From contig JBFXJJ010000005.1 in the NCBI GenBank assembly GCA_050175015.1, positions 108,953 to 172,952 of the forward strand: DNA of 64,000 nt. The letters run 5' to 3'. Every line of letters begins with the position of its first letter. Position 1 is the stretch's first letter. This document shows, one piece after another, positions 13,318 through 47,196 of this stretch. The notes beneath the pieces were generated by a model. The model worked only from the letters and a program-made list of their open reading frames with translations, did no database searches and was not told where the DNA came from. Source of the DNA: Alphaproteobacteria bacterium. Lineage in GTDB: Bacteria; Pseudomonadota; Alphaproteobacteria; JBFXJJ01. A program made the position numbers and the translations under genes.

Positions 13318-13327
13318 TTTTTATTTC

Positions 13328-24108: not shown

Positions 24109-24167
24109 AAAAAATACTCTCTAATTTCAAGTGTTAACTTTTTACTGAAGATAACTATACTCTATAT

Positions 24168-24277
24168 TTAATCTAAAATGCACATAATTTTTTGTTATAT
24201 TTTACTAACATAAGGCTACCGTGGGTTGAGTAACAGTATTTACAATTTCAGCTCTAAATAATTACTAATACAGCCGC
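24168..24277 (-). promoter_or_regulatory. Conserved cassette leader (copies at ~26274-26383 and ~28968-29050)
   Basis: TAATTTTTTGTTA...GGTTGAGT...GCTCTAAATAATTACTAA block precedes three cassette membrane genes. Confidence 0.65.
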
Positions 24278-25570: not shown

Positions 25571-25588
25571 AAAAAACTCCTTCTAAAA

Positions 25589-26209: not shown

Positions 26210-26383
26210 TATTATATCCTTAAAATAATAAAATTTGTTTTCTGCAAAATATCGTTACACAATATATGCCGTTTTAATCTAAAATGCACATAATTTTTTG
26301 TTACATTTGTCCAACATAAAACCATCTTAGGTTGAGTGATAGCGTTTACAATTTCAGCTCTAAATAATTACTAATACAGCCGT

Positions 26384-27878: not shown

Positions 27879-27915
27879 TTTTATATTCTCCTAAAAGTCA
27901 CATTTATTATTAGCG

Positions 27916-28887: not shown

Positions 28888-29056
28888 TTAAAGCTATAAC
28901 CTTTACTTAGAGACGTAATATGCAAAAATTGCTTTATAGCTTATACCCATTTGAACTTAAAGCCGTGTAATTTTTTTGTTATATTTTGCTAACAAAATGA
29001 TACTATAGGTTGAGTTGAGAAGAGCTGTTTTTGGCTCTAAATAATTACTAAAAATA

Positions 29057-29160
29057 TTATGCCGCAGATTTAATTTTTGATGTTATTTTATCACCATTTG
29101 ATAAAATGGTGTTATCGTAGAAAAGTTTTGTTCTTGTTCTGTTAAAGGTGTTTCGCTCAT
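29057..29160 (-). pseudogene. Possible vestigial head of a fourth cassette
   Basis: GGGGAG RBS and ATGA-coupled start after ankyrin gene; MSETPLTEQEQ, then another frame LSNGDKITSKIKSAA*. Confidence 0.4.
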
Positions 29161-30791
29161 AGATTAACTCCCCAATGATTAGTATTTTTTTTATCTTTAA
29201 ATAAGTAGATTATTATAAAAAATAAAAAATTTGATAAATGAATAAAAAATAAAAAAAACATAGTATATGTCATAGCTGAATATGGTATTTCAATTTGAAG
29301 CTTTTTAGGATCACAAAACATCAAAAATAAAGAGAACATGCTTAAAGAATAAAAAATAATTAAACCTGAAAACAAGGTTGTTATTGGTGGATTATTTTTT
29401 TGTAAATCTATTTTAGTAAAAAAAGCATCTATTGGAAACACAGTTGAACATATTATAATGATTAAAAGATAAACATAAATATAACTATCTGAGCTTAAAT
29501 GTCTTATAGAAAAAGTTTGTTTATTGTAGTCGAAAAGCCAAACGTTCTTCCATATATCAGTTAAATAAATAGGACCGCTACAAGAATTGCCATAGTAAGC
29601 CCTGATAAAATCACCTATAAAAATAGCAATAAAAAATACCCAAAATGCAATTTCTCCTTTTTTTGATTTGCCTAAAAAACATTCCTCATGTTGAGGCATA
29701 CGATATCTAAAAAAAGTAGACACAACAAAAATTAAAGCTAAGGTAACAGGGATAGTAGCTATAGCATATTGGTTTTTCTGCCATAGCAATACAACCTGTA
29801 ATAAGATTATGTAGGAAACACTAAAAACACTATAACAACGATAAAGCAACCCTGTTTTAAATTTATTGATGGCTTTATCTGCTGTCTCACCGTTATTATC
29901 CTTAATATTAGCATCGGCTCCAGCATCAATAAGCGTTTGCATAATTTCAATATTATTATTAGTGCTGGCTATAAATAAGGCGGTTTGCCCTTCATTGTCT
30001 TTAATATTAACCTTTGCTCCATTAGCAATAAGTAACTTTACAACATCTAAACGATTGAAAGTCGTCGCATAAAATAAAGCCGTACATCCATTATTATCAA
30101 GAGCATTAATATTGGCTCCAGATTTTATCAAAAAATCAACAATGTCTTTATTTTTCGAGGCTAACATCAATGGAGTAATGCCGTCATTATTCACTTGATT
30201 GATGTCAAGTCCGAGATTTAAAAATGTTTTTATAATTTCAGGATTAGAATTGCAGGCAGCAAGATGAAGCGCTGAAGATGCTTTTGCTGTTTTATCATTA
30301 ACATTTGCTCCTAATCTAATTAAAGTTTTTATAACTTCAGGGTTTTTATTAAGCCTAGCTGCAAGTAATATGGGGGTTATCTCATGTATGAAGAATTTGT
30401 GCTTTGTTTCATCAAATTCAATGTTAACACCTTTAAACTTAATATTAAGATTATCTCCTGATTTAACGGCTTTTTCTATGTGCTCAGAGGAGCCATAGAT
30501 TATAATATCTAAAAAACTTTTTTGAAAAAAACCTAATTTTTGAAAAAAACCTAATATATCGGCCAAAATTGATAGAGGAATATAACTAATAATAAAAGAA
30601 AAAACGAAGTAGAAAATTATTTCTTCAATAGAGAAAGATTGGAAAAACTTGAAAAAAATTAAAGCTACATATAAAGGTGTATATATTAAAAGCCACATAG
30701 ATAGAAAGATTCTATTAAAATTCAGCGAATTGAATCTAAGAGATAATTTATCTTTAGAAAAAAGATTTAGCAGCAAATAGCGTATGTTCAT
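29157..30791 (-). CDS. Ankyrin-repeat multi-pass membrane protein
   Basis: TPILLAA, SALHLAA, GITPLMLA, GCTALFYA, GQTALFIA repeats between TM regions. Confidence 0.85.
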   Translation of the reverse strand: MNIRYLLLNLFSKDKLSLRFNSLNFNRIFLSMWLLIYTPLYVALIFFKFFQSFSIEEIIFYFVFSFIISYIPLSILADILGFFQKLGFFQKSFLDIIIYGSSEHIEKAVKSGDNLNIKFKGVNIEFDETKHKFFIHEITPILLAARLNKNPEVIKTLIRLGANVNDKTAKASSALHLAACNSNPEIIKTFLNLGLDINQVNNDGITPLMLASKNKDIVDFLIKSGANINALDNNGCTALFYATTFNRLDVVKLLIANGAKVNIKDNEGQTALFIASTNNNIEIMQTLIDAGADANIKDNNGETADKAINKFKTGLLYRCYSVFSVSYIILLQVVLLWQKNQYAIATIPVTLALIFVVSTFFRYRMPQHEECFLGKSKKGEIAFWVFFIAIFIGDFIRAYYGNSCSGPIYLTDIWKNVWLFDYNKQTFSIRHLSSDSYIYVYLLIIIICSTVFPIDAFFTKIDLQKNNPPITTLFSGLIIFYSLSMFSLFLMFCDPKKLQIEIPYSAMTYTMFFLFFIHLSNFLFFIIIYLFKDKKNTNHWGVNL

Positions 30792-31086
30792 ATGGCAATC
30801 CGTGTTTAAATTTAATCTTTAAGTATTTTATAACTCTTTTTTTTTATGACTATCAACTAAAAAGAGAGATAAAATTGTGATTTTTTTAGATTCGTTATAT
30901 TTTAATGGTAAAACAGGCTAGTTTTTATCGTTTCAGCTTTGTTGATAGAGCGTCATCTTATGTTAAAAAAATGTAACAAAGCCACTAATTATAGAAGATT
31001 TTTATCTTTTTATTATTTTAATTCTTGAGTGTTGTTTAGCTTTTTTGTAAGTTACTTTTAGTTTTCAACTAAAGGTTTTATTTAGA

Positions 31087-33279
31087 ATGGTCTCCCAAAT
31101 AATCTCTCCCAATTTTGAAGCATCAAAAAGCGAACAAAAAGCCCCCAATCTTGATACAGGATTGATTGCTCTGGTTATGATTGGCCGCTTTTTTGAACGT
31201 CCTGCTGATCCTTTCCAAATTAAGCATAGTTTAGGCAAAGGTGAGTTACTGCTTTCGGAAATAGATATTCTGCGGGCAGCAAAGCTGCTTGATTTAAAAG
31301 CCAAAGCTATCTCTTCTGATTTTGACCGTATTGCCTCCAAAACGCCGCTGCCTTGTATTGCTCAGAGCAATGATGGGGAGTGGTTTATTATTGGACGGGC
31401 TGCGGAAGATAAAATCTTAATTCATAAGCCTGGGCAAAAAAATCCAGAAATCATCGCTAAAGAAGCTTTTATGAGTTTATGGTCTGGGCGTTTGATTCTT
31501 TTTACCAGCCGCAAAACCACCGTTGGCGGACGCCGCCGTTTTGATGTCTCGTGGTTTATTCCTGCGGTTGTTAAATATCGCCGTTTATTTGCCGAGGTTC
31601 TTCTGGCATCGTTTTTCTTGCAACTCTTTGCTCTAGTTTCACCTTTGTTGTTTCAGGTTATTATTGATAAGGTTCTGGTGCATCACGGCCGCAGCACGCT
31701 TGATGTTATCTTTTTTGCTTTATTATCTATCGCCATTTTTGAAAGTGTTTTAGGCGCACTTCGCACTTATGTGTTTTCGCATACGACTAACCGAATTGAT
31801 GTCGAACTTGGAACACAGTTGTTTCGGCATTTAACAGGACTGCCTTTGGCTTATTTTGGCGCCCGCCGTGTTGGTGATACGGTTGCTCGTGTCAGAGAGC
31901 TTGAAAATATCCGCAGTTTTTTAACTGGTTCGGCTTTGACATTAGTAATCGATCTTGCTTTTACATTCGTCTTTTTTACAGTGATGTTTTATTATGCCCC
32001 TATTCTTTCTTGGATTGTGGTTGGCTCTATTCCTTTTTATGTTGTCTTATCCTTGCTAATTTCACCGCTCCTGCATCAAAGAGTTGAAACCAAATTTAAG
32101 CACGGCGCAGAAAACCAAGCCTTTTTAGTAGAAACCATTACAGGAATAGAAACCGTTAAAGCTATGGCTTTGGAACCACAGTCTCACCGCCGCTGGGAAG
32201 AACAGCTTGCGGCTTATGTTGCTAGCTCTTTTAAGGTTAGCAATCTTGGCAATGTCGGACAGCAGACAATTCGCTTAATTCAAAAAGCGACTTCAGCTTT
32301 AACTCTGTTTTTTGGCGCCAAATTGGTTATGGATAACAGCTTGTCCGTTGGGCAGCTTGTAGCATTTAATATGCTGGCGGGCAATGTTTCTTCCCCAATC
32401 CTGCGTTTAGCTCAGGTGTGGCAGGATTTTCAGCAAGTTAGAATATCGATTGACCGTTTAGGTGATATTTTAAATAATCCTCCTGAGCCTTCGGTTGAAA
32501 CTGGTAGAGCTCCTACAACAGCGCTTAAAGGTCATGTTGTTTTTGAAAATGTTTCTTTTCGTTATGATCCTTCGGGTTCACGCATTTTATCCGATATTAA
32601 ACTTGATATTATGCCTGGTGAAACTATCGGCATTGTTGGTTCCTCAGGTTCGGGCAAAAGTACGCTCACCAAACTAATTCAGAGACTTTATATTCCAGAG
32701 CAAGGACGGATTATGGTTGATGATATTGATATTTCAACCGCAGATCCTGCTTGGCTCAGAAGGCAGATAGGTGTCGTTTTACAGGAAAATATGCTGTTCA
32801 ACCGCTCGGTTAGAGATAATATTGCTATTACCAATCCTTCCGTTCCTATGGAACGGGTCATTGAAGCTTCTAAGCTTGCAGGAGCTCATAGCTTTATTGC
32901 GGAACTTTCTGATGGTTATGACACAATAATAGGCGAAAGAGGTACCTCGCTTTCGGGCGGTCAACGCCAGAGAATTGCAATCGCTAGAGCTTTGCTTACC
33001 AATCCCCGAATTCTAATATTTGATGAAGCAACTTCCGCTCTCGACTATGAATCTGAAAAAGCAATTCAAGATAATATGGAGAAAATCTGTCAAGGCAGGA
33101 CAATGTTTATTATTGCGCATAGATTATCAACGGTGCGAAGCTGTTCTCGCATTATTGTGATTGAACGCGGCGAAATTGTTGAAATCGGAAGTCATAAGTC
33201 ATTATTAAAATCAGGCGGGCGCTATGCTAACCTGTGGCGCTGCCAAACTGATGATGCCGTTAAAGAGGTGTCATTATGA
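31087..33279 (+). CDS. hlyB: Type I secretion ABC transporter, HlyB family
   Basis: C39-like N-domain without the catalytic Cys (LDTGL), GDTVARVRELENIR, GSSGSGKST, LSGGQRQR, IFDEATSALD. Confidence 0.95.
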   Translation: MVSQIISPNFEASKSEQKAPNLDTGLIALVMIGRFFERPADPFQIKHSLGKGELLLSEIDILRAAKLLDLKAKAISSDFDRIASKTPLPCIAQSNDGEWFIIGRAAEDKILIHKPGQKNPEIIAKEAFMSLWSGRLILFTSRKTTVGGRRRFDVSWFIPAVVKYRRLFAEVLLASFFLQLFALVSPLLFQVIIDKVLVHHGRSTLDVIFFALLSIAIFESVLGALRTYVFSHTTNRIDVELGTQLFRHLTGLPLAYFGARRVGDTVARVRELENIRSFLTGSALTLVIDLAFTFVFFTVMFYYAPILSWIVVGSIPFYVVLSLLISPLLHQRVETKFKHGAENQAFLVETITGIETVKAMALEPQSHRRWEEQLAAYVASSFKVSNLGNVGQQTIRLIQKATSALTLFFGAKLVMDNSLSVGQLVAFNMLAGNVSSPILRLAQVWQDFQQVRISIDRLGDILNNPPEPSVETGRAPTTALKGHVVFENVSFRYDPSGSRILSDIKLDIMPGETIGIVGSSGSGKSTLTKLIQRLYIPEQGRIMVDDIDISTADPAWLRRQIGVVLQENMLFNRSVRDNIAITNPSVPMERVIEASKLAGAHSFIAELSDGYDTIIGERGTSLSGGQRQRIAIARALLTNPRILIFDEATSALDYESEKAIQDNMEKICQGRTMFIIAHRLSTVRSCSRIIVIERGEIVEIGSHKSLLKSGGRYANLWRCQTDDAVKEVSL

Positions 33280-34694
33280 TTAAGCCTAAAATGCCTGAAA
33301 AAATTTTGAGCATAGCTTTAAAAGCAAAGACGTTTTTTATTACGGTTTGGCAGTTTTTACAATCTCTTGCCGAAGGACCCGAGCAAAAGACTTTAGAAAA
33401 ACAGTTTTTACCTGCCGTTTTGGAAATTACAGAAACGCCGCCCTCTCCTCTTGGCAGAACTATGATTTATGTAATTATAACCGTCTTTACGACAGCCTTG
33501 TTATGGGCAACTTTTTCTAAAGTTGACATTGTAGCGATTGCTCCAGGAAAGTTAGTTCCAAGCGGTTATAGTAAAATAATTCAGCCGCTAAAAATTGGCA
33601 TTATTGCTAATATTTTTGTGGAAGACGGGCAAAAAGTTGTCAAAGATGAACCTCTGATTGAAATCAGAGCCGAAGAAACTGGGGCTAATAAAATTCGTCT
33701 GGGGCAGGAGCTTAAGTTTGCTAAGCTTGATGTTGCAAGGCTTTCAGCGCTTCTAGAGCCTATTCCCGAAAAGGCATTCAATCCAGATGATGTAGAATCT
33801 GAACTGCTATCCCAGCATAAAACATTGCTAATCGGAGAACTAGAAAAGTATCGTGCCAGCTTATCGGTTATTGAAAAACAAATTGTGCAAAGTGAAGCCG
33901 AAAAAGCGGTATCTGAAGCCGAAATCAGAAAAATTGAACGTATGCTACCCAATCTTAAAGAAAGGGTGGACGCTAAATATAAGCTGAAAGAACAAGGAAT
34001 TGTTGCTCCTATGACATATTTAGAATTAGAACAAGATTTGATTGATTTAGAAGAGCAGCTTAATATTCAGAAAAAAAGTGTCGCCGAAATTAAAGCGCAG
34101 CTTGAAACTCAAAAAATGCAATATACTGAAACCAAAAACTCATTTAAAAATGATGTGCTTTACCGCATTAATGAAGCTCGCAACAATGTCTCGATGCTAA
34201 AAGAAGAATTATCTAATGCTGAGTGGCTAGAAGAAATGACAACTATAAAGGCTCCAGAAGCCGGCATTATTCAAGAGTTGTCAGTTCATACTGTTGGCGG
34301 AGTTGTTACAGAAGCTCAGCCGTTAATGAAACTTGTTCCCAAGGATAGTGTTTTAGAAGTCGAAGCTATGGTGCTAAACAAAGATATCGGCTTTGTTAGG
34401 GAAGAACAGCAGGCAGTAATCAAAATCGATAGTTTTCCTTTCACCAAATATGGCACAATCGATGCAACCGTTATTGATATATCACCTGATGCGATTGAAA
34501 ATGAAGAACTGGGATACGTCTATAAGGCAAAGCTTAGCCTTGCAAAAGACCATCTGATGGTAGAGGGCAAAAAAGTTATGCTCTCCCCGGGTATGACTAT
34601 CGTCGCCGAAATCAAAACAGGACAACGACGCCTTATCGAATTCCTGCTCTCCCCTATGATTAAATATACCGCCGAAAGTATGAGAGAAAGATAA
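33276..34694 (+). CDS. hlyD: Type I secretion membrane fusion protein, HlyD family
   Basis: FLPAVLEI.ETPPSP, coiled coil, FPFTKYG, LSPGM...EIKTGQRRLIEFLLSP...RER. Confidence 0.95.
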   Translation: MIKPKMPEKILSIALKAKTFFITVWQFLQSLAEGPEQKTLEKQFLPAVLEITETPPSPLGRTMIYVIITVFTTALLWATFSKVDIVAIAPGKLVPSGYSKIIQPLKIGIIANIFVEDGQKVVKDEPLIEIRAEETGANKIRLGQELKFAKLDVARLSALLEPIPEKAFNPDDVESELLSQHKTLLIGELEKYRASLSVIEKQIVQSEAEKAVSEAEIRKIERMLPNLKERVDAKYKLKEQGIVAPMTYLELEQDLIDLEEQLNIQKKSVAEIKAQLETQKMQYTETKNSFKNDVLYRINEARNNVSMLKEELSNAEWLEEMTTIKAPEAGIIQELSVHTVGGVVTEAQPLMKLVPKDSVLEVEAMVLNKDIGFVREEQQAVIKIDSFPFTKYGTIDATVIDISPDAIENEELGYVYKAKLSLAKDHLMVEGKKVMLSPGMTIVAEIKTGQRRLIEFLLSPMIKYTAESMRER

Positions 34695-35707: not shown

Positions 35708-35933
35708 AACGAAGTTCGTTCATATGAGAGGTTTTAAGGTTGTATAAAAAGTTTTGCTTTTGCTTTTACAAAAAGCAAAGCTGTTGGCAAGCATTTACCG
35801 TAAGGCAAAAAAATTCGTATAATTAAATAGCTTGTATTCTAAAAACGGCTTTTTATTTAAAATTTTCTGTTTTGTAAACTTTTGTTATATTTTATTACAA
35901 TATATTAACAATAATAATTAGTAAAATAACATT

Positions 35934-36020
35934 TTATTGCAAAATATTATAACCATAATTAGGATAAAACATAGTTATGGTTAAAAATAATATCATTATA
36001 AAATTAAATTTACTAAACAT
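35934..36020 (-). CDS. Inverted start/signal-peptide module of locus 1 (28-aa OFF-state peptide)
   Basis: GAAAGG RBS; MFSKFNFIMILFLTITMF-YPNYGY-NILQ*; YPNYGY is encoded by the inverted repeat. Confidence 0.8.
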   Translation of the reverse strand: MFSKFNFIMILFLTITMFYPNYGYNILQ

Positions 36021-36537
36021 GGTCTTGACCTTTCATAAAAATGGTAACAAGATTTTAATTTATATTTGTTTTAATTCTGCGCTAGTTTCTAGCAATTATC
36101 AAGAATAAAAAATGCGCGAAATATTATTTTTTTAATATTTAAGATTTAATTTATTAAAATTTGTTACAAAACTATAAACTACAAAGAAGTTTTAAATTGA
36201 ATATAAAAGCAGATACTTCCTATTGAGTAATACATTGAAATTATTGTATTTTATTCCAAGCAAAACTGTTGGGTAACTTGAGGGTAACATTATTTACTAT
36301 AATTTAAAAATATAGCAAAGATGTTTTAAGATTAATATATTGATAAATAATATTTTATTACCATATTTATAAATATTTTAGGGTAACATATAGGTAACTT
36401 TTAAATATTATTTTTTAATATAATTATTTTTTGCATAAATTTAACAATCACATAACACATTGATTTATAATATTTTTAATATAAATATTTTTATTAAAAT
36501 GCTTTAATTTTAAGGATATATCCTAATTATGGTTATA
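35948..36537. promoter_or_regulatory. Invertible switch 1 (19-bp IRs, 552-bp internal segment), OFF orientation
   Basis: TATAACCATAATTAGGATA 35948-35966 and TATCCTAATTATGGTTATA 36519-36537; promoter-like TTGATA-N17-CAGAAT on minus strand 36102-36074. Confidence 0.85.
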
Positions 36538-39227
36538 GTCAAACAGCCATCACAACCTGCTCAGAATTACAGGCGATAAACAATAATCCATCTGGAGATT
36601 ACTATCTAACAAATAATATCGATTGTACTAGCATTGAAAATTTCGAACCTATAGCGTCTTTTTCTGGCTACTTTAATGGTATGGGGTTCACCATATCAAA
36701 TCTAAAAATCAGTCGAAGTTCACAAGACAATATTGGACTGTTTGGCTCTACTAACAATGCTGTTATTATTAATGTTGTATTATCTAATATTAATATAAAG
36801 GGGCAAGCTAATGTTGGCGGATTAGCGGGGTATATGAACAAGTCCTATGTTAACGGCGTTAAAATTTCTGGCTTGGTTGAAAGCAGCAGTTCTTGTGTTG
36901 GAGGTTTATCGGGACGCACAGACAACACTGGTATCTATAGCTGTTCTTTTATTGGTCATAGCAAAGGTCTTAGTGTTGATACAGGTGGAATAGTAGGATA
37001 TTTCCTTACAAATTCAAGTCTTTCTAATAGTTATGCTTCAGGTGTAGTTGAAGGCACGGGATTGGTTGGAGGTTTAGTTGGACGTATGGAAATGAATACG
37101 TCTATAACTAACAGTTACGCAGATAGCTCTGTTACAGGAAGTGATCTGCATGTCGGAGGCTTGGTAGGCTGGCAGGCTTCATCTTCTGTAATTAATAGAA
37201 GTTACGCCGCTGGCGCTGTTTCGGGACCAGAAGGATACGTTGGAGGTTTAGTTGGTTGGGATTATGATAACACTCTGACTGTTACATCATCTTATTGGGA
37301 TATGCAAACTTCTGGACAAGCGACAACAGCAGGAAACAAGGGGACAGGATTAACTACCACTCAAATGAAAACACAAAGCTCTTTTGTTGATTGGAATTTT
37401 GTTGATGTTTGGAAAGCACCAGAAACTAACTATGCAAAATTAAGTTGGGAAGAGACCGTTCCAATTTCAACCTGCGAGGGACTCCAAAATATAAGCAACA
37501 ACCTTGGCGGCAGTTATTATTTAGTAAATGACATTGATTGCAGCGATACAGTTAACTGGAATAGTGGCAAAGGCTTCAGACCTATTGGGCTAAGTGATTT
37601 TTGGAACATAAGTTCTTTTCGTGGAACATTTGATGGTAAAGGTTACAAGATAACAAATCTTTATATTAATAGAACGGACGCCAGCTGTGATCTTGGTTAT
37701 GGATTGTTCGGTTACGCTATACAGGCCATCATTCAGAATGTGGGAATTGAGCAAGCTAATATTAAAGGGCGTTGGATAACAGGAGCATTGATTGGCTTGG
37801 CTACCAGTAATGTTTTTGTAACCAATTGCTATTCTTCAGGAGATATTTCTGCACTAAAACAAGGGGGGCTTGCTTGCGGGCATGACGGCTTATCTCGTGC
37901 TGGAGGACTAATTGGCCAATTGTGGAGCAGCAACTCTAGAATTTATAATGTTTATTCTAATGCTAAAGTCAGCGGTACAGGTGAAGAAATTGGAGGTTTA
38001 GTTGGAGTATTTTATGGATATGCCAATTCAACATCTTATATAAAAAATTCGTATTCTACAGGACTTGTTGCCTGCTCTACCAATTACTGCGGCGGTTTTT
38101 TGGGGCATTTATATGAAAACGCTTATATTATCAACAGTTATTGGGATATGCAAACTTCAGGAAAAGCCTCAAGTGCTGCGGGAGTTGGCAAATCTACATC
38201 AGATATGAAAAGTAAAAGCACATTTTCAGGCTGGGACTTTACTAATGTTTGGTATCTTATTTACGGTGATTATCCACGATTAAAAACCCCCTATCCTGTT
38301 TGCACAGGCTGTGCAGTATTAGAAGATGGCGTGTGTGTAGCGGGCGGCAGTTGTTCTGGTGAACACCCGACGTGTAATGTTACGGGCTGGGTTGGACTTT
38401 GCGAATGTTCATCTAGCACTTGCGGTGATGGTCGAGCTTGTTCTGACGGTGTTTGCGTAAACTGTGATTCTGACTCAGCTTGCGGAGCTTGTGGTTGTGG
38501 GACATCTCAAAAACCAACGGGAACAGGCGCTTGTATGAACAACAGTATGTGCTGCCCTGGCGAATGCAATATGGCAACGGGGGCTAACTCTTGCGGTTAT
38601 AGCGACGACTTATGCCCAACAGGTGTATCCTGCAATCGCTCAACCCTTTCCTGTTGTGCAAATGAGCTTCCTTATTGGCGAAGTGAAAATTGCCGATCTT
38701 GTTCATCGACCAGTGGACTTTCTGGAAATTGTCAAACGCCTGGTATGATGTGCAACTCTCGTTACGACTGTATCGTATGTCTAGCTAATAGCCAGTGTAC
38801 TTGTGAAGACGGTGAAGTAGCAGACGGTATGGGTGGCTGTGTTGAACCTTACTGTTACAGTGACAGCGAATGCGGAGTTGATGAATGCGTTAATGCTGGC
38901 TTGTATAATGCTTTTTGCTCTAACTGCAGTTCAGTAAACAAAGTATGGCACAGCACTTCTTGTGAGAGCTGTCCTGCTGGTTCGGTATATTCTAACGGCG
39001 TTTGCGTATGCTCTGACGGCAAGATGTGGAACTCAGCCAACAATCTGTGCTTATCTCGAGGCGTTATCAGCTCAGGCGGCATCTTAGACTTAAAAACATC
39101 TAATACCATAAATGCGTCAGATGAGAGATACGCCAGAATTAAACGTAAAATGAACCGCATAACCAGCAGTGCTTACGCTGGAGCAGCGCAGAAAAAAATT
39201 GAAGAGGAGGAGGAATCCCAAGAGTAA
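36519..39227 (+). CDS. GLUG-repeat, Cys-rich exported protein body (headless until switch 1 inverts)
   Basis: Frame open from 36498 with no ATG until 36681; repeated VGGLVG motifs, SYWDMQTSG, Cys-rich C-terminal third. Confidence 0.85.
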   Translation, partial: YPNYGYSQTAITTCSELQAINNNPSGDYYLTNNIDCTSIENFEPIASFSGYFNGMGFTISNLKISRSSQDNIGLFGSTNNAVIINVVLSNINIKGQANVGGLAGYMNKSYVNGVKISGLVESSSSCVGGLSGRTDNTGIYSCSFIGHSKGLSVDTGGIVGYFLTNSSLSNSYASGVVEGTGLVGGLVGRMEMNTSITNSYADSSVTGSDLHVGGLVGWQASSSVINRSYAAGAVSGPEGYVGGLVGWDYDNTLTVTSSYWDMQTSGQATTAGNKGTGLTTTQMKTQSSFVDWNFVDVWKAPETNYAKLSWEETVPISTCEGLQNISNNLGGSYYLVNDIDCSDTVNWNSGKGFRPIGLSDFWNISSFRGTFDGKGYKITNLYINRTDASCDLGYGLFGYAIQAIIQNVGIEQANIKGRWITGALIGLATSNVFVTNCYSSGDISALKQGGLACGHDGLSRAGGLIGQLWSSNSRIYNVYSNAKVSGTGEEIGGLVGVFYGYANSTSYIKNSYSTGLVACSTNYCGGFLGHLYENAYIINSYWDMQTSGKASSAAGVGKSTSDMKSKSTFSGWDFTNVWYLIYGDYPRLKTPYPVCTGCAVLEDGVCVAGGSCSGEHPTCNVTGWVGLCECSSSTCGDGRACSDGVCVNCDSDSACGACGCGTSQKPTGTGACMNNSMCCPGECNMATGANSCGYSDDLCPTGVSCNRSTLSCCANELPYWRSENCRSCSSTSGLSGNCQTPGMMCNSRYDCIVCLANSQCTCEDGEVADGMGGCVEPYCYSDSECGVDECVNAGLYNAFCSNCSSVNKVWHSTSCESCPAGSVYSNGVCVCSDGKMWNSANNLCLSRGVISSGGILDLKTSNTINASDERYARIKRKMNRITSSAYAGAAQKKIEEEEESQE

Positions 39228-39326
39228 CTTAGAAAATACCCAAAGTTTTGGTCTCGCTTTTAAAAAAGCGAGTGCCGTCTGCAAAGACAATAAGCCTATA
39301 GCTTATAAAAAATACTAATTAAAGAT

Positions 39327-39490: not shown

Positions 39491-40789
39491 CTATGCGGTC
39501 TCTGAATAGCTCATTGTTTTTTGCTGCAAAAAATTCTCAACTTTTTGTAAATCAGACAACGAAATCAAGGTTTCAAGATTAACATATTCGTCATCATCTA
39601 ATCGAGAAACTACTTGAGATTTTTTATATATAAAGGCGATTGCATCACCTGCATAAACAGGAATTTTGAAATTATGAGAAATTGCTTCTTTCGTAAGCTC
39701 AGAATCAATAAGTTTTAGAAGCTCCTCTATCCCTTCCCCTGTTATCGCTGACACTGCGGTAACTTTATATTTGCGTTCCTGAATATTCATAACTTCTGTT
39801 TTATGGTCATCTGGAATAAGATCTATCTTATTAAATACTTCAATAAGACCGTGTTCAACTTTATCTTGGAGACCTAAATTGCAAAGCACCTGCTCAACGT
39901 CTTTTTTCTGATAAATACTGTCTTTATGAGAAATATCTCTTATATGAAGAATAATGTTAGATTGCAGCACCTCTTCTAATGTTGCTCTAAATGCCATAAT
40001 AAGTTCTGTCGGCAAATCGGAAATAAAGCCAACCGTATCAGATAAAATAACTTTTTTCCCTGATGGGAGATTAAGCAGTCTCATCGTAGGATCAAGCGTT
40101 GCAAAAAGCTGATCTTTGGCAAAAACATTAGCAGCCGACAAATAGTTAAAAAGCGTTGATTTTCCAGCATTAGTATAGCCAACCAAAGCAACTACAGGAT
40201 AGGGGACTTTCTGCCTCGATTTACGGTGAAGTTCTCTGGTTTTTTTTACATTTTCTAATTGTTTTTTTATTTTGGCAATGCGTTCGCCAATAAGCCTGCG
40301 GTCAATTTCAATCTGGGTTTCACCAGGACCACCGATAAAGCCTAAACCACCGCGTTGTCTTTCCAAGTGGGTCCAACTGCGAACTAAGCGGCTTTTTTGA
40401 TATTCTAAGTGAGCCAATTCAACTTGAAGAATACCTTCTCTTGTTTTTGCTCTAGCGCCGAATATTTCTAAAATTAGCGCGGTACGATCAATGACCTTAC
40501 AATTCCAGGCTTTTTCAAGATTTCTCTGCTGAACTGGAGACAAGCTACAATTTATTATCGCAAGCTTAATTTCATCATCTTGAATTCTTTGAGCAATTAA
40601 ATCTATATTTCCTTTGCCCAGTAATGTTGAGGGCTTTATCTGTTTAATCAAAAAGCCGAGACTAAAAACAATTTCTTGTTCAATCGCTTCAGCTAAACCA
40701 CACACTTCAGCTAAACAAGATGTTATATCTCGGCTTTCTTTGTCATCACTAAAATAAGGATGAATTACACAAGCTTTATTTTTAAGCAA
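39491..40789 (-). CDS. hflX: GTPase HflX
   Basis: GGPGETQIEIDRR, GYTNAGKST, FATLDPT, DTVGF, NKID. Confidence 0.96.
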   Translation of the reverse strand: MLKNKACVIHPYFSDDKESRDITSCLAEVCGLAEAIEQEIVFSLGFLIKQIKPSTLLGKGNIDLIAQRIQDDEIKLAIINCSLSPVQQRNLEKAWNCKVIDRTALILEIFGARAKTREGILQVELAHLEYQKSRLVRSWTHLERQRGGLGFIGGPGETQIEIDRRLIGERIAKIKKQLENVKKTRELHRKSRQKVPYPVVALVGYTNAGKSTLFNYLSAANVFAKDQLFATLDPTMRLLNLPSGKKVILSDTVGFISDLPTELIMAFRATLEEVLQSNIILHIRDISHKDSIYQKKDVEQVLCNLGLQDKVEHGLIEVFNKIDLIPDDHKTEVMNIQERKYKVTAVSAITGEGIEELLKLIDSELTKEAISHNFKIPVYAGDAIAFIYKKSQVVSRLDDDEYVNLETLISLSDLQKVENFLQQKTMSYSETA

Positions 40790-40791
40790 GG

Positions 40792-41043
40792 CTAAACTTC
40801 TTGAAAATCTTTATCTTCTTCAAATAGTTGAATTGGAGTAACTGGCATAATCGTTGAAATAGCATGCTTATAGACAAGCTGCGAATGCCCATCTCTTCTA
40901 AGCAACATAGAAAAACTGTCAAACCACGTAATAATGCCTTGAAGCTTAACTCCGTTTATTAAAAATACCGTAACAGGAGCTTTATTTTTCCTCACATGGT
41001 TTAAAAAAACGTCCTGTACACTCTGGTTTTTATCTGTTGGCAT
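40792..41043 (-). CDS. hfq: RNA chaperone Hfq
   Basis: [27 protein letters not shown]. Confidence 0.97.
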
Positions 41044-41248
41044 CTCTTATCCTTTAAATTAAATGTATATTCTAGCATCAAGTATATACTAAAGATTATA
41101 ACTATCACAAAAAATATCTTTTATTACCACTATTTTTTCAAAAAAGATATACTTTTTTATTTGAAGTATTTGTAATACATTTTTTTATAATTTCAATCTC
41201 TAGTTATGTTATTTTTTGTTACATTTTTTTGTTATTGTAAAAAAATGA

Positions 41249-42625
41249 TTAAAAATACTCTAAACCTACAGAAAAGAATTTTTCGACATTCTTGACCGAA
41301 CCCGTTGCGGCAAAAACCACGATACGGTCTCCGACTTCAATTTCAGTAAGTCCTGTAGGATTAATTACTTGGTCATCTCGCACAATAGCACCAAGCATAA
41401 CTCCGGGAGGAAACCTAATATCTCTCAATGGTTTTCCTATTAACGGCGAAGTTTCTAACGCATCCGCCTCTATAATTTCACCAAAACCCTCATGGATAGA
41501 ATAAGCTGAATGTATCCGCCCTTTTCTAACTTTTTGAAGAATGGTTGAAACCGTTATAGCTCTTGGGTCAATAACCGTGTCAACTCCAAGATTGTGAATC
41601 AAGCTATTATAAGTAGGGTTATTAATCAAGGTTGCCGTTCTTGGCACACCAAAGCGTTTAGCTAACAGAGATGACAAAAGATTGACTTCGTCATCATTTG
41701 TAACCGCTATTGTTGCTTCTGAAGAATAAATCCCCGCTTCCTGCAAGATATCACTTTCTAAAGCATCACCATTAATGACAACGGCTTCTTCCAATTCCGC
41801 AGCAATCATTTTGGCTCTGTCTGAATCTATTTCAATAACTTTACAATATAAATTATTACTTTTCTTTTCTAATTCTTTAGCCATACAAAAGCCAACGCCG
41901 CCGCCGCCAAAAATTAATATTCTTCTGGCCTCAGCAGCTTCACAGCCGAATGTCGACATAGCTCTTTCAGTCTGCTTTGAATCGACAACGAAATAAACCT
42001 CATCATCTTTTTTAATTTGCTCATCAGCTTTAGGCAAAATTGGCTTGTTGTCTCTTATAATTCCAACTATCACCATATTTAAATCTGGAAACAAGTTAGA
42101 AATTTGTCGCATAGGGGTATTTATAACAGGACATTCGTCGCTGCATCTAACGCTAATCAACCTTACCTTATCATCTACTAAAGGTATTACTTCAATAGCC
42201 CCAGGGATCTCGAGTTTACGAATAACAGCTTTAGCAATTTCTACTTCTGGAGAAATAATAACATCTACAGGCATATTGTCATCGTCGTAAAGGCTTGCCC
42301 ACAATGGTTGGAGATAATCCTGGGAACGAATCCTCGCAATTTTAACTGGAACGTTAAACAAAGAGTGTGCAACTTGGCACGAAACCATATTTATTTCGTC
42401 GGTGTTCGTAACCGCAATAAGCATATCAGCATCACGGGCGCCTGCCCTTTCTAAGACCTTAGGATGAGACGCGTGTCCAAGTACCGTTTGTACATCTAAA
42501 TTACTGCTAATTTTTTCAATTAGTTCTGAACTGTTATCAATTATGGTAACATCGTTATTATCGCTTAACAAATAACGTGCAATAGTTGAACCTACCTGTC
42601 CAGCTCCACAAATAATAACCTTCAT
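41249..42625 (-). CDS. trkA: Trk potassium transporter NAD-binding subunit
   Basis: MKVIICGAGQVG and a second GGGGVG RCK domain. Confidence 0.95.
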   Translation of the reverse strand: MKVIICGAGQVGSTIARYLLSDNNDVTIIDNSSELIEKISSNLDVQTVLGHASHPKVLERAGARDADMLIAVTNTDEINMVSCQVAHSLFNVPVKIARIRSQDYLQPLWASLYDDDNMPVDVIISPEVEIAKAVIRKLEIPGAIEVIPLVDDKVRLISVRCSDECPVINTPMRQISNLFPDLNMVIVGIIRDNKPILPKADEQIKKDDEVYFVVDSKQTERAMSTFGCEAAEARRILIFGGGGVGFCMAKELEKKSNNLYCKVIEIDSDRAKMIAAELEEAVVINGDALESDILQEAGIYSSEATIAVTNDDEVNLLSSLLAKRFGVPRTATLINNPTYNSLIHNLGVDTVIDPRAITVSTILQKVRKGRIHSAYSIHEGFGEIIEADALETSPLIGKPLRDIRFPPGVMLGAIVRDDQVINPTGLTEIEVGDRIVVFAATGSVKNVEKFFSVGLEYF

Positions 42626-44007
42626 TATTTATCCCCTATAATGCCTAACATTTTTAATTTACGGTGCAGTGCGGAACGTTCCATTTCCACCTGTCTCGCC
42701 GTTTCTGAGATATTGTCACCACATCTAGCTAATTTTGCTAGTAAATATTCTTTTTCAAACATATCTCTAGCCTCTCTAATAGGCAATGACATAATTTCAC
42801 TTTTTTTATCCCAAGAAAAAACCTTTGGAGCTGCGGAATAAATTTCTGAAGGAAGCATATTGATGGTTATTTGATTCCCTGAAACTTCTGAAGACATAAT
42901 CAAAATCCAGTCTATAATGTTTTTTAACTGCCTTACATTTCCAGGCCAGTCATAAGACTGCATAGCCATTAACGCATCTTCAGCGAAAGTTTTAATATTC
43001 TCATTAGCAATATTGTTAGATTTTCGCATAAAATATTCAGCTAATTTAGGAATATCATCTTTCCTTTCTTTAAGACTTGGCATTTTAATCGGAACAACAT
43101 TAAGCCTATAAAATAAATCTTCCCTAAATTTATTATTTCTAATAGCTTCTTGTAAATTACGGTTAGAGGTTGCTATTACTCGAACATCGACCTCAATTTT
43201 TTTATTTCCCCCAACTCTAAAAAAAGTCTGTTCCTGAAGAACTCTAACTATTTTTCCTTGAGTCTCAATAGGCATATCCGCAACTTCATCAAGTAGTAAT
43301 GTTCCACCATGAGCTTGCTCAAAAAAACCTGTTTTGGCATCGGATATATCGTTATCGCTTTTTTCTTTACCAAAAAGCTCTAGCTCCATTCTTTCTGGAT
43401 GCATCCCTGCACAATTAATAACGACAAAAGGATTGTTTTTTCTTCTTGAAAGCTTATGAATAAGTCTTGCAGCAACTTCTTTGCCAGATCCCTGCTCACC
43501 AGTGATAAGCACTCTGGAATTAGTTGGAGCAACCAGCTCAATATTTTTACGAACCGCATTTATTATTGCTGAGAAACCTATCAAATCTTCATCTGGAGAA
43601 AATCTTTGTTTAAGTTCAATATTTTCACGCTTAAGATTTGCGTTTTCAATAGCCCTTTCAACAATCAACAAAAGGCGATCAGATTTAAAAGGCTTTTCAA
43701 TATAATCATAGGCGCCCTTTTTGATAGCAGCAACCGCTGTTTCAATATTGCCATGACCACTAATCATAACTACAGGAAGATATGGATATTCCTTGTTTAT
43801 CTCCGATAGAATATCAAGACCGTCAAGCTTACTGCCTTCTAACCAAATATCAAGAATGACAATATCTGGCCTCTTCGTTCTTAATGCTTCAAATGCAGTT
43901 TCAGAATTATTAGCCTCACGAATGGTATACCCTTCGTCGCTTAAAATTCCTCCAATTAACATTCTTATATCATCTTCATCATCAACGATAAGAATATTTT
44001 TACTCAT
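42625..44007 (-). CDS. ntrX: Response regulator NtrX
   Basis: Receiver (LDIWL, ISGHGNIETAV), AAA+ lacking GAFTGA, FREDLFYRLNV, MERSALHRKLK. Confidence 0.93.
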   Translation of the reverse strand: MSKNILIVDDEDDIRMLIGGILSDEGYTIREANNSETAFEALRTKRPDIVILDIWLEGSKLDGLDILSEINKEYPYLPVVMISGHGNIETAVAAIKKGAYDYIEKPFKSDRLLLIVERAIENANLKRENIELKQRFSPDEDLIGFSAIINAVRKNIELVAPTNSRVLITGEQGSGKEVAARLIHKLSRRKNNPFVVINCAGMHPERMELELFGKEKSDNDISDAKTGFFEQAHGGTLLLDEVADMPIETQGKIVRVLQEQTFFRVGGNKKIEVDVRVIATSNRNLQEAIRNNKFREDLFYRLNVVPIKMPSLKERKDDIPKLAEYFMRKSNNIANENIKTFAEDALMAMQSYDWPGNVRQLKNIIDWILIMSSEVSGNQITINMLPSEIYSAAPKVFSWDKKSEIMSLPIREARDMFEKEYLLAKLARCGDNISETARQVEMERSALHRKLKMLGIIGDK

Positions 44008-46206
44008 CTAGCTGTCCATATTTTTAAAACGTAATGAAACTTTAGCTCCGCCATTTTCATTATCATCTATTAGCAATTCACCCTTATGGTCTTCCATAAT
44101 CTTTTTCACAATAGCCAAACCTAAACCTGTTCCTTTGGCTCTTGTAGTTACATAAGGTTCGGTTAACTTTTCCCTTGTTTCTTTATCGGGTAATCCTTTG
44201 CCGTTATCAATAACCGTTATTTTTATATAATTTTTTTCATTTAATACAAGTATTAAAATGTTTCCTTTAAAATTTTCTTCATGTTTTTCTTTATCATGTA
44301 CTGCTTCAATAGCATTTTTTATAATATTAGTAACAGCTTGGTTTAGCTGTCTATTATCACAACGCATATAAATCTTAGGTTCTTCAATTTTAGTCTCAAA
44401 AGTTATTTCAGGATATGCTGTTTTTTGTAGAAAAACTGCACTTTGTACAATTTCACAGATATTATATTCTTTCATTTGAGGAGCAGGCATACGTGCAAAA
44501 GCTGAAAATTCGTCAACCATACGCCCAATATCAGCAACCTGCCTAATAATTGTTGCTATGCAAGTATCAAAAGTCTCAACATCTTCCTTAATCTGCTTTT
44601 TATATTTCTTAGAAAGCCTTTCTGCCGAAAGCTGAATAGGAGTTAAAGGATTTTTGATTTCATGTGCAATGCGCCTTGCAACATCTGCCCAAGCAGCCTT
44701 TCTTTGTGCTTGCTCTAATTCTGTAATGTCATCAAAAGTAAAAACATAACCAACGACTTCGTTGTTACGCATTTCTGCAGCAAGCCTAACCAATAATATT
44801 TTATCATTAGCTTTAATTTCACCATTAAATGGCTTGCTCGGCTTATCATATACGATATCAAAAGCATTAGTAAATTCAGGTATTGCTTTGATAATATGAA
44901 GTTCTTTAAGCTCTTCTGGCTGGCGGCTTAACAAATCACAAGCCGAACGATTAATAATTGAAATATTGCCATTGCTATCAAGTCCGACAACTCCAGCAGA
45001 TACTCCGGCCAAAACCGTTTCTATGAATCTACGGCGTTTATCAATCTCATAATTAGTTTCAACCAACCGTTCTCTTTGCGACAAAAGCTGGCTAGTCATA
45101 CGGTTAAAAGCACGACTTAATATACTCAACTCATCAGCGTAGGAATTTTCCTCAACTTTAACTTCTAAATCGCCTTCTCTAACTTGCCCTGCAGCATCAA
45201 TTAAAGCCGTAATAGGCTTTAAAAGCTGCGTTGCTAAATTAAGTCCAATCCACATTGAAGCGGTTAGCAGTAACAGAGCCGCCAAAATAAAAATCATCGA
45301 AAAGGTTATTTCGATATTTGAGCGTTGTCCTTCTAATCTTTTATATTCAGATACCGATTTGTTAGCCCTGTCCATATGAGCAAGAACTCTTGGATCAACA
45401 AAACGTCCAACATACAAATAAAAATCGCCTACCGTATCAAGTTTAGCTAAAGCTCGAACTCTATCTGAAGTCTCGCCAGTTAAAACCGCTATTTCACCTC
45501 TGTTAGCCTTATCAACCGCCCAATAAGGAACTTCTTCAAAACGCAATGAAAAGGTATAGCCCGTGTAAGCTATAACCTTACCATCAATATTAAAAATTAC
45601 GGCTTCGTTAAGTCCTTGCTCCATTGATGTTGTGGTTAACACCTGTTTAATTTGATTAACATTAAAGCCTGAGTGATAAATTTCTCTATTAATAGCATTA
45701 GCAACGACTAAAACATCTCCCGTAATAATTTGGCGATGTTCTTTTAAATACGCCTCTGCAACAATAAGCGATTCATTAACTGCTGTTTTAACATTATCAC
45801 TAAACCAGCTTTGCAAGCCGGCGTTAAAAAATAAGGCTGAAAATACTGCTACTAAAATAGTAGGTGTTGCCGCAACTAATCCAAACAAAAAGACTAATCT
45901 CACTTGCAACTTAGAGCCTGCTTTGCCCTCTTTTCTAGCTCCCCAAACCTGAACCATTCTTCTTATGATAACGATACTAAGAATTAAAAGTATTGTTAGA
46001 TCAATATTAAGTAGAATTAAAACCTTTTTAGAATCATATTCTCTAGAATCGGCCTGAGTTAAAGCAAAATATGTGGCCAATCCAGATATAACGGCACAAA
46101 AAGAAAGACCTATGGCTAATTTTCGTGAAAGGTTATTTTTTCTTGCCCAAATGCCAAGTTTTAAAAAAAGACGGCTTTTTTGAAAATCAGTTTTGCCAAT
46201 AACCAT
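44008..46206 (-). CDS. ntrY: Sensor histidine kinase NtrY
   Basis: TM/HAMP/PAS, AWADVARRIAHEIKNPLTPIQLSAERL, EPYVTTRAKGTGLGL. Confidence 0.93.
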   Translation of the reverse strand: MVIGKTDFQKSRLFLKLGIWARKNNLSRKLAIGLSFCAVISGLATYFALTQADSREYDSKKVLILLNIDLTILLILSIVIIRRMVQVWGARKEGKAGSKLQVRLVFLFGLVAATPTILVAVFSALFFNAGLQSWFSDNVKTAVNESLIVAEAYLKEHRQIITGDVLVVANAINREIYHSGFNVNQIKQVLTTTSMEQGLNEAVIFNIDGKVIAYTGYTFSLRFEEVPYWAVDKANRGEIAVLTGETSDRVRALAKLDTVGDFYLYVGRFVDPRVLAHMDRANKSVSEYKRLEGQRSNIEITFSMIFILAALLLLTASMWIGLNLATQLLKPITALIDAAGQVREGDLEVKVEENSYADELSILSRAFNRMTSQLLSQRERLVETNYEIDKRRRFIETVLAGVSAGVVGLDSNGNISIINRSACDLLSRQPEELKELHIIKAIPEFTNAFDIVYDKPSKPFNGEIKANDKILLVRLAAEMRNNEVVGYVFTFDDITELEQAQRKAAWADVARRIAHEIKNPLTPIQLSAERLSKKYKKQIKEDVETFDTCIATIIRQVADIGRMVDEFSAFARMPAPQMKEYNICEIVQSAVFLQKTAYPEITFETKIEEPKIYMRCDNRQLNQAVTNIIKNAIEAVHDKEKHEENFKGNILILVLNEKNYIKITVIDNGKGLPDKETREKLTEPYVTTRAKGTGLGLAIVKKIMEDHKGELLIDDNENGGAKVSLRFKNMDS

Positions 46207-46227
46207 TCAACTTACTCGTAGGAAAAT

Positions 46228-47196
46228 TTATATAAAGAATTCATTTATCATATTTTTTGCTATATCTAAAGACGTAATTAAATTAAATCTTTCTCTAAAC
46301 TCTGTTGCGTTCTTAAAATTGCGGCTGTACCAGCAAATGTGTTTGCGAGCTATTTTTATGCCATTCCTAATCCCATAATATTGCAAAATCTCATCATAAT
46401 GTTCTAAAACAATTTTTCTCTTTTCTTCATTTGAAAACTCTGGTTTTGCAAATAATTCCCCTTCATTTAAAGCTTTAGAAATATCTGATACAGCCCACGG
46501 ACGTCCAAGAATTCCACGCCCAATCATAACCCCGTTGCAATTAGTTTTAGAAATCATATTCATAGCATCTTGAGAAGAATAAATATCGCCATTGCCAATA
46601 ACTGGAATTGATAATTTATTCTTTACTGCGGCAATAACATCAAGATTTGCAATCCCAGAATACATTTGCTCCCGTGTTCGACCGTGAACAATAACGGCAT
46701 CAGCCCCTTCCGACTCGGCGATATGTGCTATCTCTGGAGCATTAATGTTTTTCTCGTCCCAACCAGAGCGAATTTTTACGGTTAACGGGATATTAATTGC
46801 ATTTCGCGCAGCTTTAACAATAGCGCCAACCCTGGCAGCATCTTTCATTAATGCGGCACCGCTGATATTAGTTATAAGCTTGCGTACAGGACACCCCATA
46901 TTAATATCGATAAGGCTTGCCCCGCTTGCTTCGCTCATTTTAGCAGCTTCAGCAATCGTTTCAGGATCGTTGCCAACGATTTGAACAGCTATTGGGTATT
47001 CATCTTGGTATGTTTTAGCTCTATTTATAGTTTTTTTATGAGATCTTACTATAGAATTTGCCGCAATCATCTCTGTGAAAAGCAAGGCTTTAGAGAATTT
47101 TCGCACCATAATACGAAAAGGTCTATCGGTTACGCCAGCCATAGGTGCAACCATAATCTTGTCATTTAATTCTAAAGAGCCTATAAAAAGAGACAT
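46228..47196 (-). CDS. dusB: tRNA-dihydrouridine synthase B (NifR3)
   Basis: APMAGVTD, DINMGCP, VHGRTR, GNGDI. Confidence 0.95.
   Translation of the reverse strand: MSLFIGSLELNDKIMVAPMAGVTDRPFRIMVRKFSKALLFTEMIAANSIVRSHKKTINRAKTYQDEYPIAVQIVGNDPETIAEAAKMSEASGASLIDINMGCPVRKLITNISGAALMKDAARVGAIVKAARNAINIPLTVKIRSGWDEKNINAPEIAHIAESEGADAVIVHGRTREQMYSGIANLDVIAAVKNKLSIPVIGNGDIYSSQDAMNMISKTNCNGVMIGRGILGRPWAVSDISKALNEGELFAKPEFSNEEKRKIVLEHYDEILQYYGIRNGIKIARKHICWYSRNFKNATEFRERFNLITSLDIAKNMINEFFI

Follow-up and report, generated by a model that had tools for sequence, protein, structure and literature searches.

Two homologous inverted-repeat segments may switch the expression and export of startless beta-helix protein genes in a probable alphaproteobacterium

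A stretch of 64,000 nucleotides from Alphaproteobacteria bacterium (assembly GCA_050175015.1, contig JBFXJJ010000005.1, positions 108,953 to 172,952; hereafter the window) was found to carry two paralogous genes for large GLUG-type beta-helix proteins that both lack a start codon at their 5′ end. Each of these genes adjoins a segment of ~590 bp that is delimited by 19-bp inverted-repeat arms and that bears, pointing away from the gene in the assembled orientation, a putative start cassette for expression and export, made up of a promoter-like element, a ribosome-binding site (RBS), an ATG and the first two parts (n- and h-regions) of a Sec-type signal peptide. We consider it probable, at roughly 75%, that each locus constitutes an ON/OFF toggle operated by site-specific inversion, in which a recombinase encoded outside the window would flip the segment and join the cassette in frame to the gene, yielding secreted precursors of 920 and 683 residues. 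In the orientation present in the assembly, the gene bodies would have neither promoter nor start codon nor export signal, and a peptide of at most 28 residues is all that the cassette would yield.

At locus 1, the gene body (36519-39227, plus strand) comprises 902 codons and a stop, and encodes two beta-helix modules of the GLUG/M26-N type followed by a Cys-rich C-terminal domain. The frame, which is open from 36498 as the initial annotation had pointed out, runs on to the stop at 39227, and its first in-frame ATG occurs only at 36681; GTG and TTG proved to be absent up to that point as well, leaving just ATT, ATA and ATC as start-like codons in the interval 36498-36681. The gene body opens with the gene-proximal arm (36519-36537), which reads YPNYGY in the gene frame and of which the last base opens the next Ser codon. 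The distal arm (35948-35966, given in the OFF orientation), located 552 nt away, is complementary to the proximal arm at 19 of 19 positions, and its minus strand likewise codes for YPNYGY, now in the frame of a short cassette open reading frame (ORF). The perfect repeat and its reading as YPNYGY, the putative c-region of the signal peptide, had both been proposed earlier and were recovered here.

The cassette ORF of locus 1 (35967-36020, minus strand) consists of an ATG at 36020 and 17 further codons (MFSKFNFIMILFLTITMF) that would provide the signal-peptide n- and h-regions. It is preceded by an RBS-like AAAGG (36029-36033, minus strand) at 8 nt from the ATG, and by a promoter-like TTGATA-N17-CAGAAT (36074-36102, minus strand) that faces the cassette ORF and agrees with the consensus at 9 of 12 positions; the promoter-like sequence is as the initial annotation gave it. 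In the assembled orientation this ORF crosses the distal arm and ends four codons further on, at a total of 28 amino acids. A partial third copy of the arm was observed at 35972-35986, and has no counterpart in locus 2.

Inverting 35948-36537 in silico joined the 18 codons of the cassette ORF to the 902 of the gene body without a frameshift, yielding exactly the 920-residue protein that had been anticipated. The locus 1 cassette peptide passed our hydropathy test (best 10-residue hydropathy of 2.72), and cleavage would probably occur after GYS according to the –3/–1 rule, in which case the mature protein would open with QT-x-ITTC, as it does in homologs. The Cys of a lipoprotein directly follows the hydrophobic region of its signal peptide, and no Cys was found at that position, the predicted cleavage being of the GYS/Q type rather than a lipobox. 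The earlier proposal of a Sec signal cleaved near GYS/Q is consistent with the hydropathy test as well as with the homolog architecture described below.

The same arrangement recurs at locus 2, where the paralogous gene lies on the minus strand (61187-63184; 665 codons and a stop) and encodes one beta-helix module followed by the same Cys-rich domain. Its proximal arm (63166-63184) codes for YPSNGY and its distal arm (63727-63745) is complementary to the proximal one at 18 of 19 positions, the mismatch being the outermost base, so that an 18-bp perfect repeat results with 542 bp between the arms. The cassette ORF (63673-63726, plus strand) again consists of an ATG and 17 codons (MKNKYKLISIMFLIITQL), with AAAGGA upstream at 63660-63665 in an RBS context (ATGAAAGG) that is shared with locus 1, and a promoter-like TTGCCA-N17-CAAAAT is present at 63602-63630 (plus strand). 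As at locus 1, the proximal arm sits in the gene frame and the distal arm in the short cassette ORF, and the locus is OFF and startless in the assembly; flipping it created an in-frame precursor of 683 residues. The first ATG of this gene body (63127) and that of locus 1 (36681) occupy non-equivalent positions. The two segments themselves are homologous (67.7% identity over 600 bp with blastn; 81% mean column identity with MAFFT), and the promoter-like element keeps its position in a stretch that is otherwise just 50-55% conserved. A third copy of the switch or of its conserved block, or a further paralog, was not found in the window, where only low-complexity noise was returned.

Across the two loci, the four arms have 16 to 17 of 19 bases in common. 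Repeat positions 8 and 10 tell the loci apart, both arms of each locus having the same bases there, and the sole mismatch between arms of the same locus is the outermost base of locus 2. Differences in the core of recombinase sites are known to block cross-recombination between heterospecific sites, and the combination of near-central differences between loci with identity within each locus fits cores that prevent cross-reaction; by this analogy, the two positions would prevent recombination across the loci. This bears on the alternative that the two loci, and perhaps others, undergo shufflon-like antigenic variation in which cassettes or bodies are moved between loci, instead of or beside local flipping. 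The extensive similarity of the arms and the shared junction in paralogous genes would be in line with such exchange, and the vsa system of Mollicutes works in this way according to the available excerpts of its description (PMC3047005, PMC4534519). Each locus, however, possesses a complete cassette of its own, and recombination between directly oriented arms would delete the ~27 kb between the loci, which hold hfq, hflX, accBC and ispDF. Taken with the putatively incompatible cores, these features make exchange between the loci quite improbable.

The repeats exceed what the composition of the window would produce. When all perfect inverted repeats with a gap of 50-3000 bp were listed and compared with 100 composition-preserving block shuffles, the two switch repeats (19 and 18 bp) were the longest of the entire 64 kb, with the next measuring 16 bp; a length of 19 bp was reached in none of the 100 shuffles and 18 bp in one. 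The repeat sequence itself, allowing up to 3 mismatches, was matched four times in the window, where 0.07 matches were expected, and 0/100 shuffles gave as many. Finally, the segment interiors were shuffled and flipped, scoring whether an in-frame ATG was created together with a peptide of 12-40 amino acids containing a strongly hydrophobic 10-mer. Only 182 of 20000 shuffled interiors passed this flip test for locus 1 and 153/20000 for locus 2, and both real loci pass it.

Inverted repeats can confuse assemblers, and the orientation or the presence of the segments might in principle stem from a mis-join at short repeats. Nothing specific to these loci points that way: repeats of 19 bp are below typical k-mer and read lengths, the same architecture is found at two separate and diverged loci, and a population of mixed orientations able to confuse an assembler would itself be evidence of inversion. 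An assembly artefact is thus scarcely credible.

Both gene bodies are uninterrupted over their 902 and 665 codons, and comparison of the paralogs over 571 aligned codons revealed a proportion of non-synonymous differences (pN) of 0.281 against a proportion of synonymous differences (pS) of 0.745, corresponding to a dN/dS of ~0.09 with synonymous sites being saturated. The gene bodies are under purifying selection. Moreover, the switch segments have diverged about as far as the genes, indicating that the arrangement predates the duplication and that both genes were kept intact with it. Neither locus displays a target-site duplication (the flanks differ at both loci) or a residual 5′ gene end with start codon and signal peptide outside the element. 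Intact and selected bodies, no target-site duplication and no leftover 5′ end together argue against a gene-killing insertion of the miniature inverted-repeat transposable element (MITE) type.

A fossil or foreign element, either a MITE-like insertion or a switch that has lost its recombinase, would nevertheless account for two AT-rich copies of ~590 bp with terminal inverted repeats that both sit in the non-expressing orientation in a window without a recombinase. On this account the 5′ ends were lost before the duplication and both genes are permanently silent pseudogenes. It is difficult to reconcile with bodies that stayed open (pN 0.28 vs pS 0.75) while the switches became as diverged as the genes, and with the missing target-site duplication and leftover 5′ ends. 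The element itself provides an in-frame start codon and signal peptide in both copies, its arms are identical within a locus and different between loci, and it has no further copies in the window, the two that exist being located at the same codon of paralogous genes. We therefore regard a fossil element as unlikely.

The architecture of homologous genes elsewhere is informative about what the window genes are missing. A genome scan with the motifs YYL[VA]NDID and CSDT[VI]NWN returned 77 loci of distant GLUG genes, and tblastn delineated 179 module N-termini outside the window, 58 of which belong to the first module of their ORF. By a strict test, a contiguous ATG and hydrophobic stretch lies directly upstream in 50 of these 58 first-module starts; seven of the remaining 8 have GTG or TTG starts or miss the threshold narrowly, and one (L068) has an in-frame stop. 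The distance from the Met to the conserved Q has a median of 23 amino acids in the homologs, compared with 25 in both flipped window genes. In one metagenome-assembled genome (MAG) with 12 loci, the signal peptide ends in ...CAS-A and the mature part starts with QT-M-IT-x-C, which is the very point where the window genes resume after the repeat. Homologs thus carry a contiguous signal peptide exactly where the window genes are cut. The switch repeat motif was found in 0 of the 77 loci, and junction repeats of at least 13 bp were absent from the homologs save for two 13-mers (L025, L026) that look like chance.

The MAG with 12 loci (L002, L004, L007, L009, L010, L013, L019, L028, L042, L043, L060 and L065) is gammaproteobacterial and contains arrays of GLUG beta-helix genes, with up to 9 module-first starts in L004. 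Its paralogs have near-identical contiguous signal peptides (MA-x-KLS-x-FL...) and conserved 5′ ends, and are without switch repeats. The locus with the in-frame stop (L068:9930-10060), from a nanoarchaeal MAG and the one homolog to be truly startless, was considered as an inverton and rejected, as flipping its 12-bp repeat restores nothing; the stop lies in an otherwise normal signal peptide, and a pseudogene, a sequencing error or recoding are possible.

Comparison of the two segments revealed that conservation is distributed unevenly. The end with the promoter-like element and the signal peptide is 50-70% identical between loci, while the opposite end, adjoining the gene (36364-36518 in locus 1, with its counterpart at 63185-63340 in locus 2), reaches 75-92% identity over windows of 40 nt, even as synonymous sites in the vicinity have become saturated. 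This most conserved part belongs to a block composed of two units of ~110-120 bp, each with a pair of heptamer boxes 11 bp apart. In locus 1 these boxes (36271-36398, plus strand) are GGGTAAC at 36271, 36282 and 36381 and AGGTAAC at 36392, with an ATTGAT/IHF-consensus-like site at 36333-36345 between the pairs and a second IHF-like site at 36453-36465. The block of locus 2 (63185-63432, minus strand) carries its boxes, read on the minus strand, in pairs at 63305-63322 and 63415-63432, and resembles the IHF consensus at 63238-63250 and 63358-63370. All 4 matches to RGGTANC-N4-RGGTANC in the window fall inside the two switches, with 0 expected. The motif WATCAANNNNTTR, which we take to be the IHF consensus, occurs once in each unit; these are 4 of 21 matches in the window, where 10.5 ± 3 were expected.

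From the arrangement of these motifs, the conserved block might be a protein-binding platform, offering either arm-type or accessory sites to a recombinase or a site to a response regulator; the GGGTAAC boxes and IHF-like sites would then assist or regulate either recombination or transcription. An RNA element in the block was considered and rejected on account of folding z-scores of 0.10 and 0.89 on the two strands, and a search against Rfam returned nothing in or near the switches, its only match in the window being a tRNA at 18014. The inner edge of the proximal arm holds a perfect palindrome of 12-14 bp, (T)AGGATATATCCT(A), in both loci (36513-36524; 63178-63191). As the distal arms do not have this palindrome, each switch is asymmetric in its ends. 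Several further motifs were observed in this AT-rich DNA. Every arm (e.g. at 35950-35957) has ATAACCAT, which is one base off TTAACCAT, presumably the alphaproteobacterial CtrA half-site, and TTAA-N7-ATAAC is present in the conserved block of both loci. The 12-mer ATCAATATGTTA has four copies in the window (55821, 57390, 63239 and 63359), two of which are in switch 2, one in the ORF at 54885-56681 and one just 3′ of a traT-like gene.

The conserved end also raises the question whether the present orientation is the functional one, with one or more promoters in the block adjoining the gene, an internal or non-canonical start codon, export (if any) by other means, for instance through the products of type I secretion genes nearby, and some other role for the repeat. 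The highest non-coding conservation indeed abuts the gene, gene-facing promoter-like elements (TTGATA-16 and TTGATT-17/18) are conserved in position between the loci, and a C39-peptidase ABC exporter and HlyD are encoded at 31087-34694. Yet in-frame ATG, GTG and TTG are all absent ahead of residue 62 of the mature-type protein in locus 1 and ahead of residue 20 in locus 2, and the Met residues at these points are not homologous. An internal start would remove the QT-x-ITTC...DIDC beta-helix cap, which is nearly invariant over 43 aligned modules. Moreover, the homologs have N-terminal signal peptides, and neither RTX repeats nor a Pfam type I secretion signal were found in the switch-gene proteins. 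Expression from the orientation as assembled therefore appears very unlikely.

As to the encoded proteins, locus 1 matched the Pfam families Peptidase_M26_N (PF05342; 3.4e-10, 40.0 bits against a cutoff of 27.7) and Glug (PF07581; 1.1e-7, 32.3 bits against a cutoff of 20.5). Locus 2 scored 15.3 bits for PF05342, under the cutoff, yet is 50-53% identical to the locus 1 modules. A sequence search of the PDB retrieved 6xjb, residues 106-325 of the pneumococcal IgA1 protease (2.7e-8). AlphaFold2 (AF2) predicted the first 300 mature residues, using the 43 aligned modules, to form a parallel beta-helix with a pLDDT (per-residue confidence) of 95.2 and a pTM (overall fold confidence) of 0.93. Foldseek with this first-module model retrieved 3n6z (E 5e-9) and 6xjb (1.8e-6), as well as 7jgj and 7uvk, with E-values ranging from 5e-9 to 1.3e-5. 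From this model we are confident that the first module is a predicted beta-helix of the IgA1-protease type, a match that fits an exported protein. The HExxH motif and a catalytic domain are absent from both proteins, which makes this the non-catalytic helix and not a protease, and NCBIfam Zmp models matched the non-catalytic region only, far under their cutoff.

The Cys-rich C-terminal domain (38250-39224; 61190-62170) counts 42 Cys in the last ~330 residues of both paralogs, is 67-71% identical between them, and ends in a predicted helix rich first in R/K and then in E. It matched no Pfam family and had no usable match in the ESM Atlas (315-residue query), and its AF2 model, built on a two-sequence alignment, was unusable at a pLDDT of 36.9. 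The switch-gene proteins are probably exposed or secreted, presumably at the cell surface, with their display being phase-varied.

Turning to the remainder of the window, no recombinase gene was found in the 64 kb when 45 ORFs of at least 150 amino acids were scanned at 1e-5 together with 5 small non-overlapping ORFs, nor when the GLUG ORF, extended upstream to where its open frame begins, and the 6 ORFs that had no match were rescanned at lax thresholds against Pfam and NCBIfam. Recombinases that act in trans on switches to which they are not adjacent do exist, as exemplified by Mpi and RecV. The gene order dus-ntrY-ntrX-trkA-hfq-hflX (39491-47196), DUF2155, IspDF and a G+C content of 35%, together with ankyrin and RTX proteins, would suggest a low-G+C, possibly host-associated alphaproteobacterium.

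Upstream of locus 1 lie a MoxR-DUF58-DUF4381-VWA-VWA/TPR-BatD operon (5468-14269) and an island of RTX and type I secretion genes (18295-34694). The latter contains an ORF for a 1736-residue RTX protein, in which nonapeptide repeats form 19 stretches, and three smaller ORFs with RTX sequences; also part of it are several ORFs without a family, a 544-residue ankyrin-repeat protein and the C39-peptidase ABC exporter with HlyD. Two hairpin-forming elements (35748-35790 and 39242-39284) with 72% identity are located 3′ of mazG and of the locus 1 gene, and are possibly a shared terminator or a repeat resembling repetitive extragenic palindromic (REP) elements; in a terminator scan of the window, no element met the rule applied. 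The third-longest perfect inverted repeat of the window (60674-60689 / 61008-61023; 16 bp with a gap of 318) is of low complexity and sits between the convergent locus 2 gene and the gene at 58506-60572. The latter ORF (688 amino acids, TTG start) and that at 54885-56681 (598 amino acids) have no Pfam or NCBIfam family and are not paralogs of the switch genes.

A number of observations weigh against an inversion toggle. Both loci are OFF in the assembly and no molecule in the flipped orientation was seen, nor was an ON allele; the 77 homologous loci include neither the genome of the window nor close relatives, the best match being 37% identical, and a plasmid collection likewise held no relative, with no match to either the switch DNA or the Cys-rich domain. 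A recombinase is missing from the window, as noted. The promoter scan returned 16 sites compared with 10.7 ± 3.6 in shuffles, meaning that promoter-like hexamers are not enriched in this AT-rich region; the element proposed in the initial annotation is conserved in position in locus 2. The signal peptide was judged by hydropathy, the –3/–1 rule and homolog architecture only. Finally, conservation peaks at the end opposite to the promoter and signal peptide, and this end bears the gene-facing promoter-like elements in the present orientation, which a simple toggle model leaves unexplained.

Despite these points, we favour the inversion toggle. The proposition that a single inversion would cut transcription, translation and export at once was put forward for locus 1 in the initial annotation; the in-silico tests all agree with it and the second locus behaves alike. 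If the flip occurs, a single recombination event would act on transcription, on the start of translation and on export together, switching a large beta-helix protein with an OFF state that has essentially no leak. A gene caller would start the locus 1 gene at 36681 and give a truncated product; annotation would shorten the two proteins (848 vs 920 and 646 vs 683 amino acids) and label them as devoid of a signal peptide. Should the arrangement be general, it would define a class of phase-variable genes that are truncated by gene callers and missed both by inverton finders confined to intergenic regions and by pipelines that demand long repeats or pairs of coding sequences (CDSs). A search signature follows from the anatomy: a startless gene for an exported protein with an in-frame arm, and an outward-facing mini-ORF with a Met and hydrophobic stretch at the other arm. 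The co-varying cores and the box module would in turn offer testable handles on switch separation and direction control.

Among known systems, the initial annotation likened the locus to invertible promoters such as fimS and those at Bacteroides Mpi sites. E. coli fimS (PMC9096935, PMC2784873) and the Bacteroides-type promoters have a comparable short, inverted-repeat-bounded promoter segment that a recombinase sets ON or OFF. In those systems, however, the repeats do not code for protein, and RBS, start codon and signal peptide all stay with the gene, whereas in the window these three elements form part of the invertible DNA and the repeat is read as codons. The switch of Clostridioides difficile cwpV, as excerpted, represents the opposite extreme. 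It, too, turns a surface-protein gene ON or OFF by inverting DNA that lies upstream, between imperfect repeats of 21 bp, and the gene for its recombinase is located elsewhere, but its segment is described as being without promoter or ORF and as acting via a terminator in the OFF transcript (PMC2784873).

Gene-altering inversions, shufflons and partial intergenic invertons resemble the window loci in having one arm inside a CDS and altering the protein (Milman 2023, PMC9881135; Chanin 2023, PMC10028968; in the text available). The cases covered in the excerpts of the former mainly keep a fixed upstream part and swap C-terminal parts, while in the window the body is fixed and an N-terminal start would be joined or removed; no alternative body or C-terminal variant was found in or beside the window segments. 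The pipeline of Milman 2023, in its description as available (PMC9881135), requires repeats of at least 22 bp and opposite-strand CDS pairs, and would therefore let the 19-bp window case escape. In open-access text, we found no account of a switch for one gene that includes its start codon and signal peptide (supplementary tables may hold similar cases), nor, among the matches listed, a paper linking GLUG proteins to inversion; the terms 'start codon' and 'signal peptide' are both absent from a 2025 phase-variation review and from the hCom2 inverton survey. With regard to the protein, the N-terminal beta-helix of IgA1 proteases (M26/Zmp) and GLUG proteins is matched in sequence and predicted fold, with the differences that HExxH and a catalytic domain are lacking and that an extra, unmatched Cys-rich domain of ~320 residues is present.

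The closest precedent is found in expression-site inversion in Mollicutes, rather than in fimS or Mpi. According to the excerpts available (PMC3047005, PMC4534519), inversion at the Mycoplasma pulmonis vsa locus places a promoter, an RBS and the 5′ end of an ORF before a formerly silent gene, and the same mechanism has been proposed for the mba / UU172 elements of Ureaplasma parvum. Since Mollicutes inversions already move promoter, RBS and 5′ coding end, the principle is less new than the initial annotation implied. The likeness extends to the movement of a 5′ cassette with promoter, RBS and signal peptide (mediated by HvsR in the case of vsa) and to an in-frame crossover in coding sequence, which for the window was obtained in silico. 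In the excerpted accounts, however, a single expression site serves several silent bodies or is switched back and forth between two genes, whereas each window locus owns a private cassette, and the far side has no gene body but just the 28-residue ORF (locus 1). With a private cassette per gene and nothing on the other side, the window switch would be purely ON/OFF. The Mollicutes examples are moreover described as lipoproteins of wall-less cells, compared with a non-lipobox beta-helix protein of a probable alphaproteobacterium here, and no adjacent recombinase was found in the window. It is possible, although we would not give this even odds, that the window holds the first ON/OFF inverton outside Mollicutes with a private start-and-export cassette and a recombination site coding for the c-region. 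It would then occur as a small family of mutually insulated switches, with cores that differ between and match within loci, run by an unlinked recombinase and by an intasome-like module of paired GGGTAAC arm-type boxes and IHF-like sites at one end only, possibly biasing or regulating the direction of switching. The principle is thus known in Mollicutes, and what would be new here is its use to toggle one gene ON and OFF, in what is probably an alphaproteobacterium; if true, a mechanism of Mollicutes antigen families would extend to single genes of a Gram-negative, possibly host-associated bacterium.

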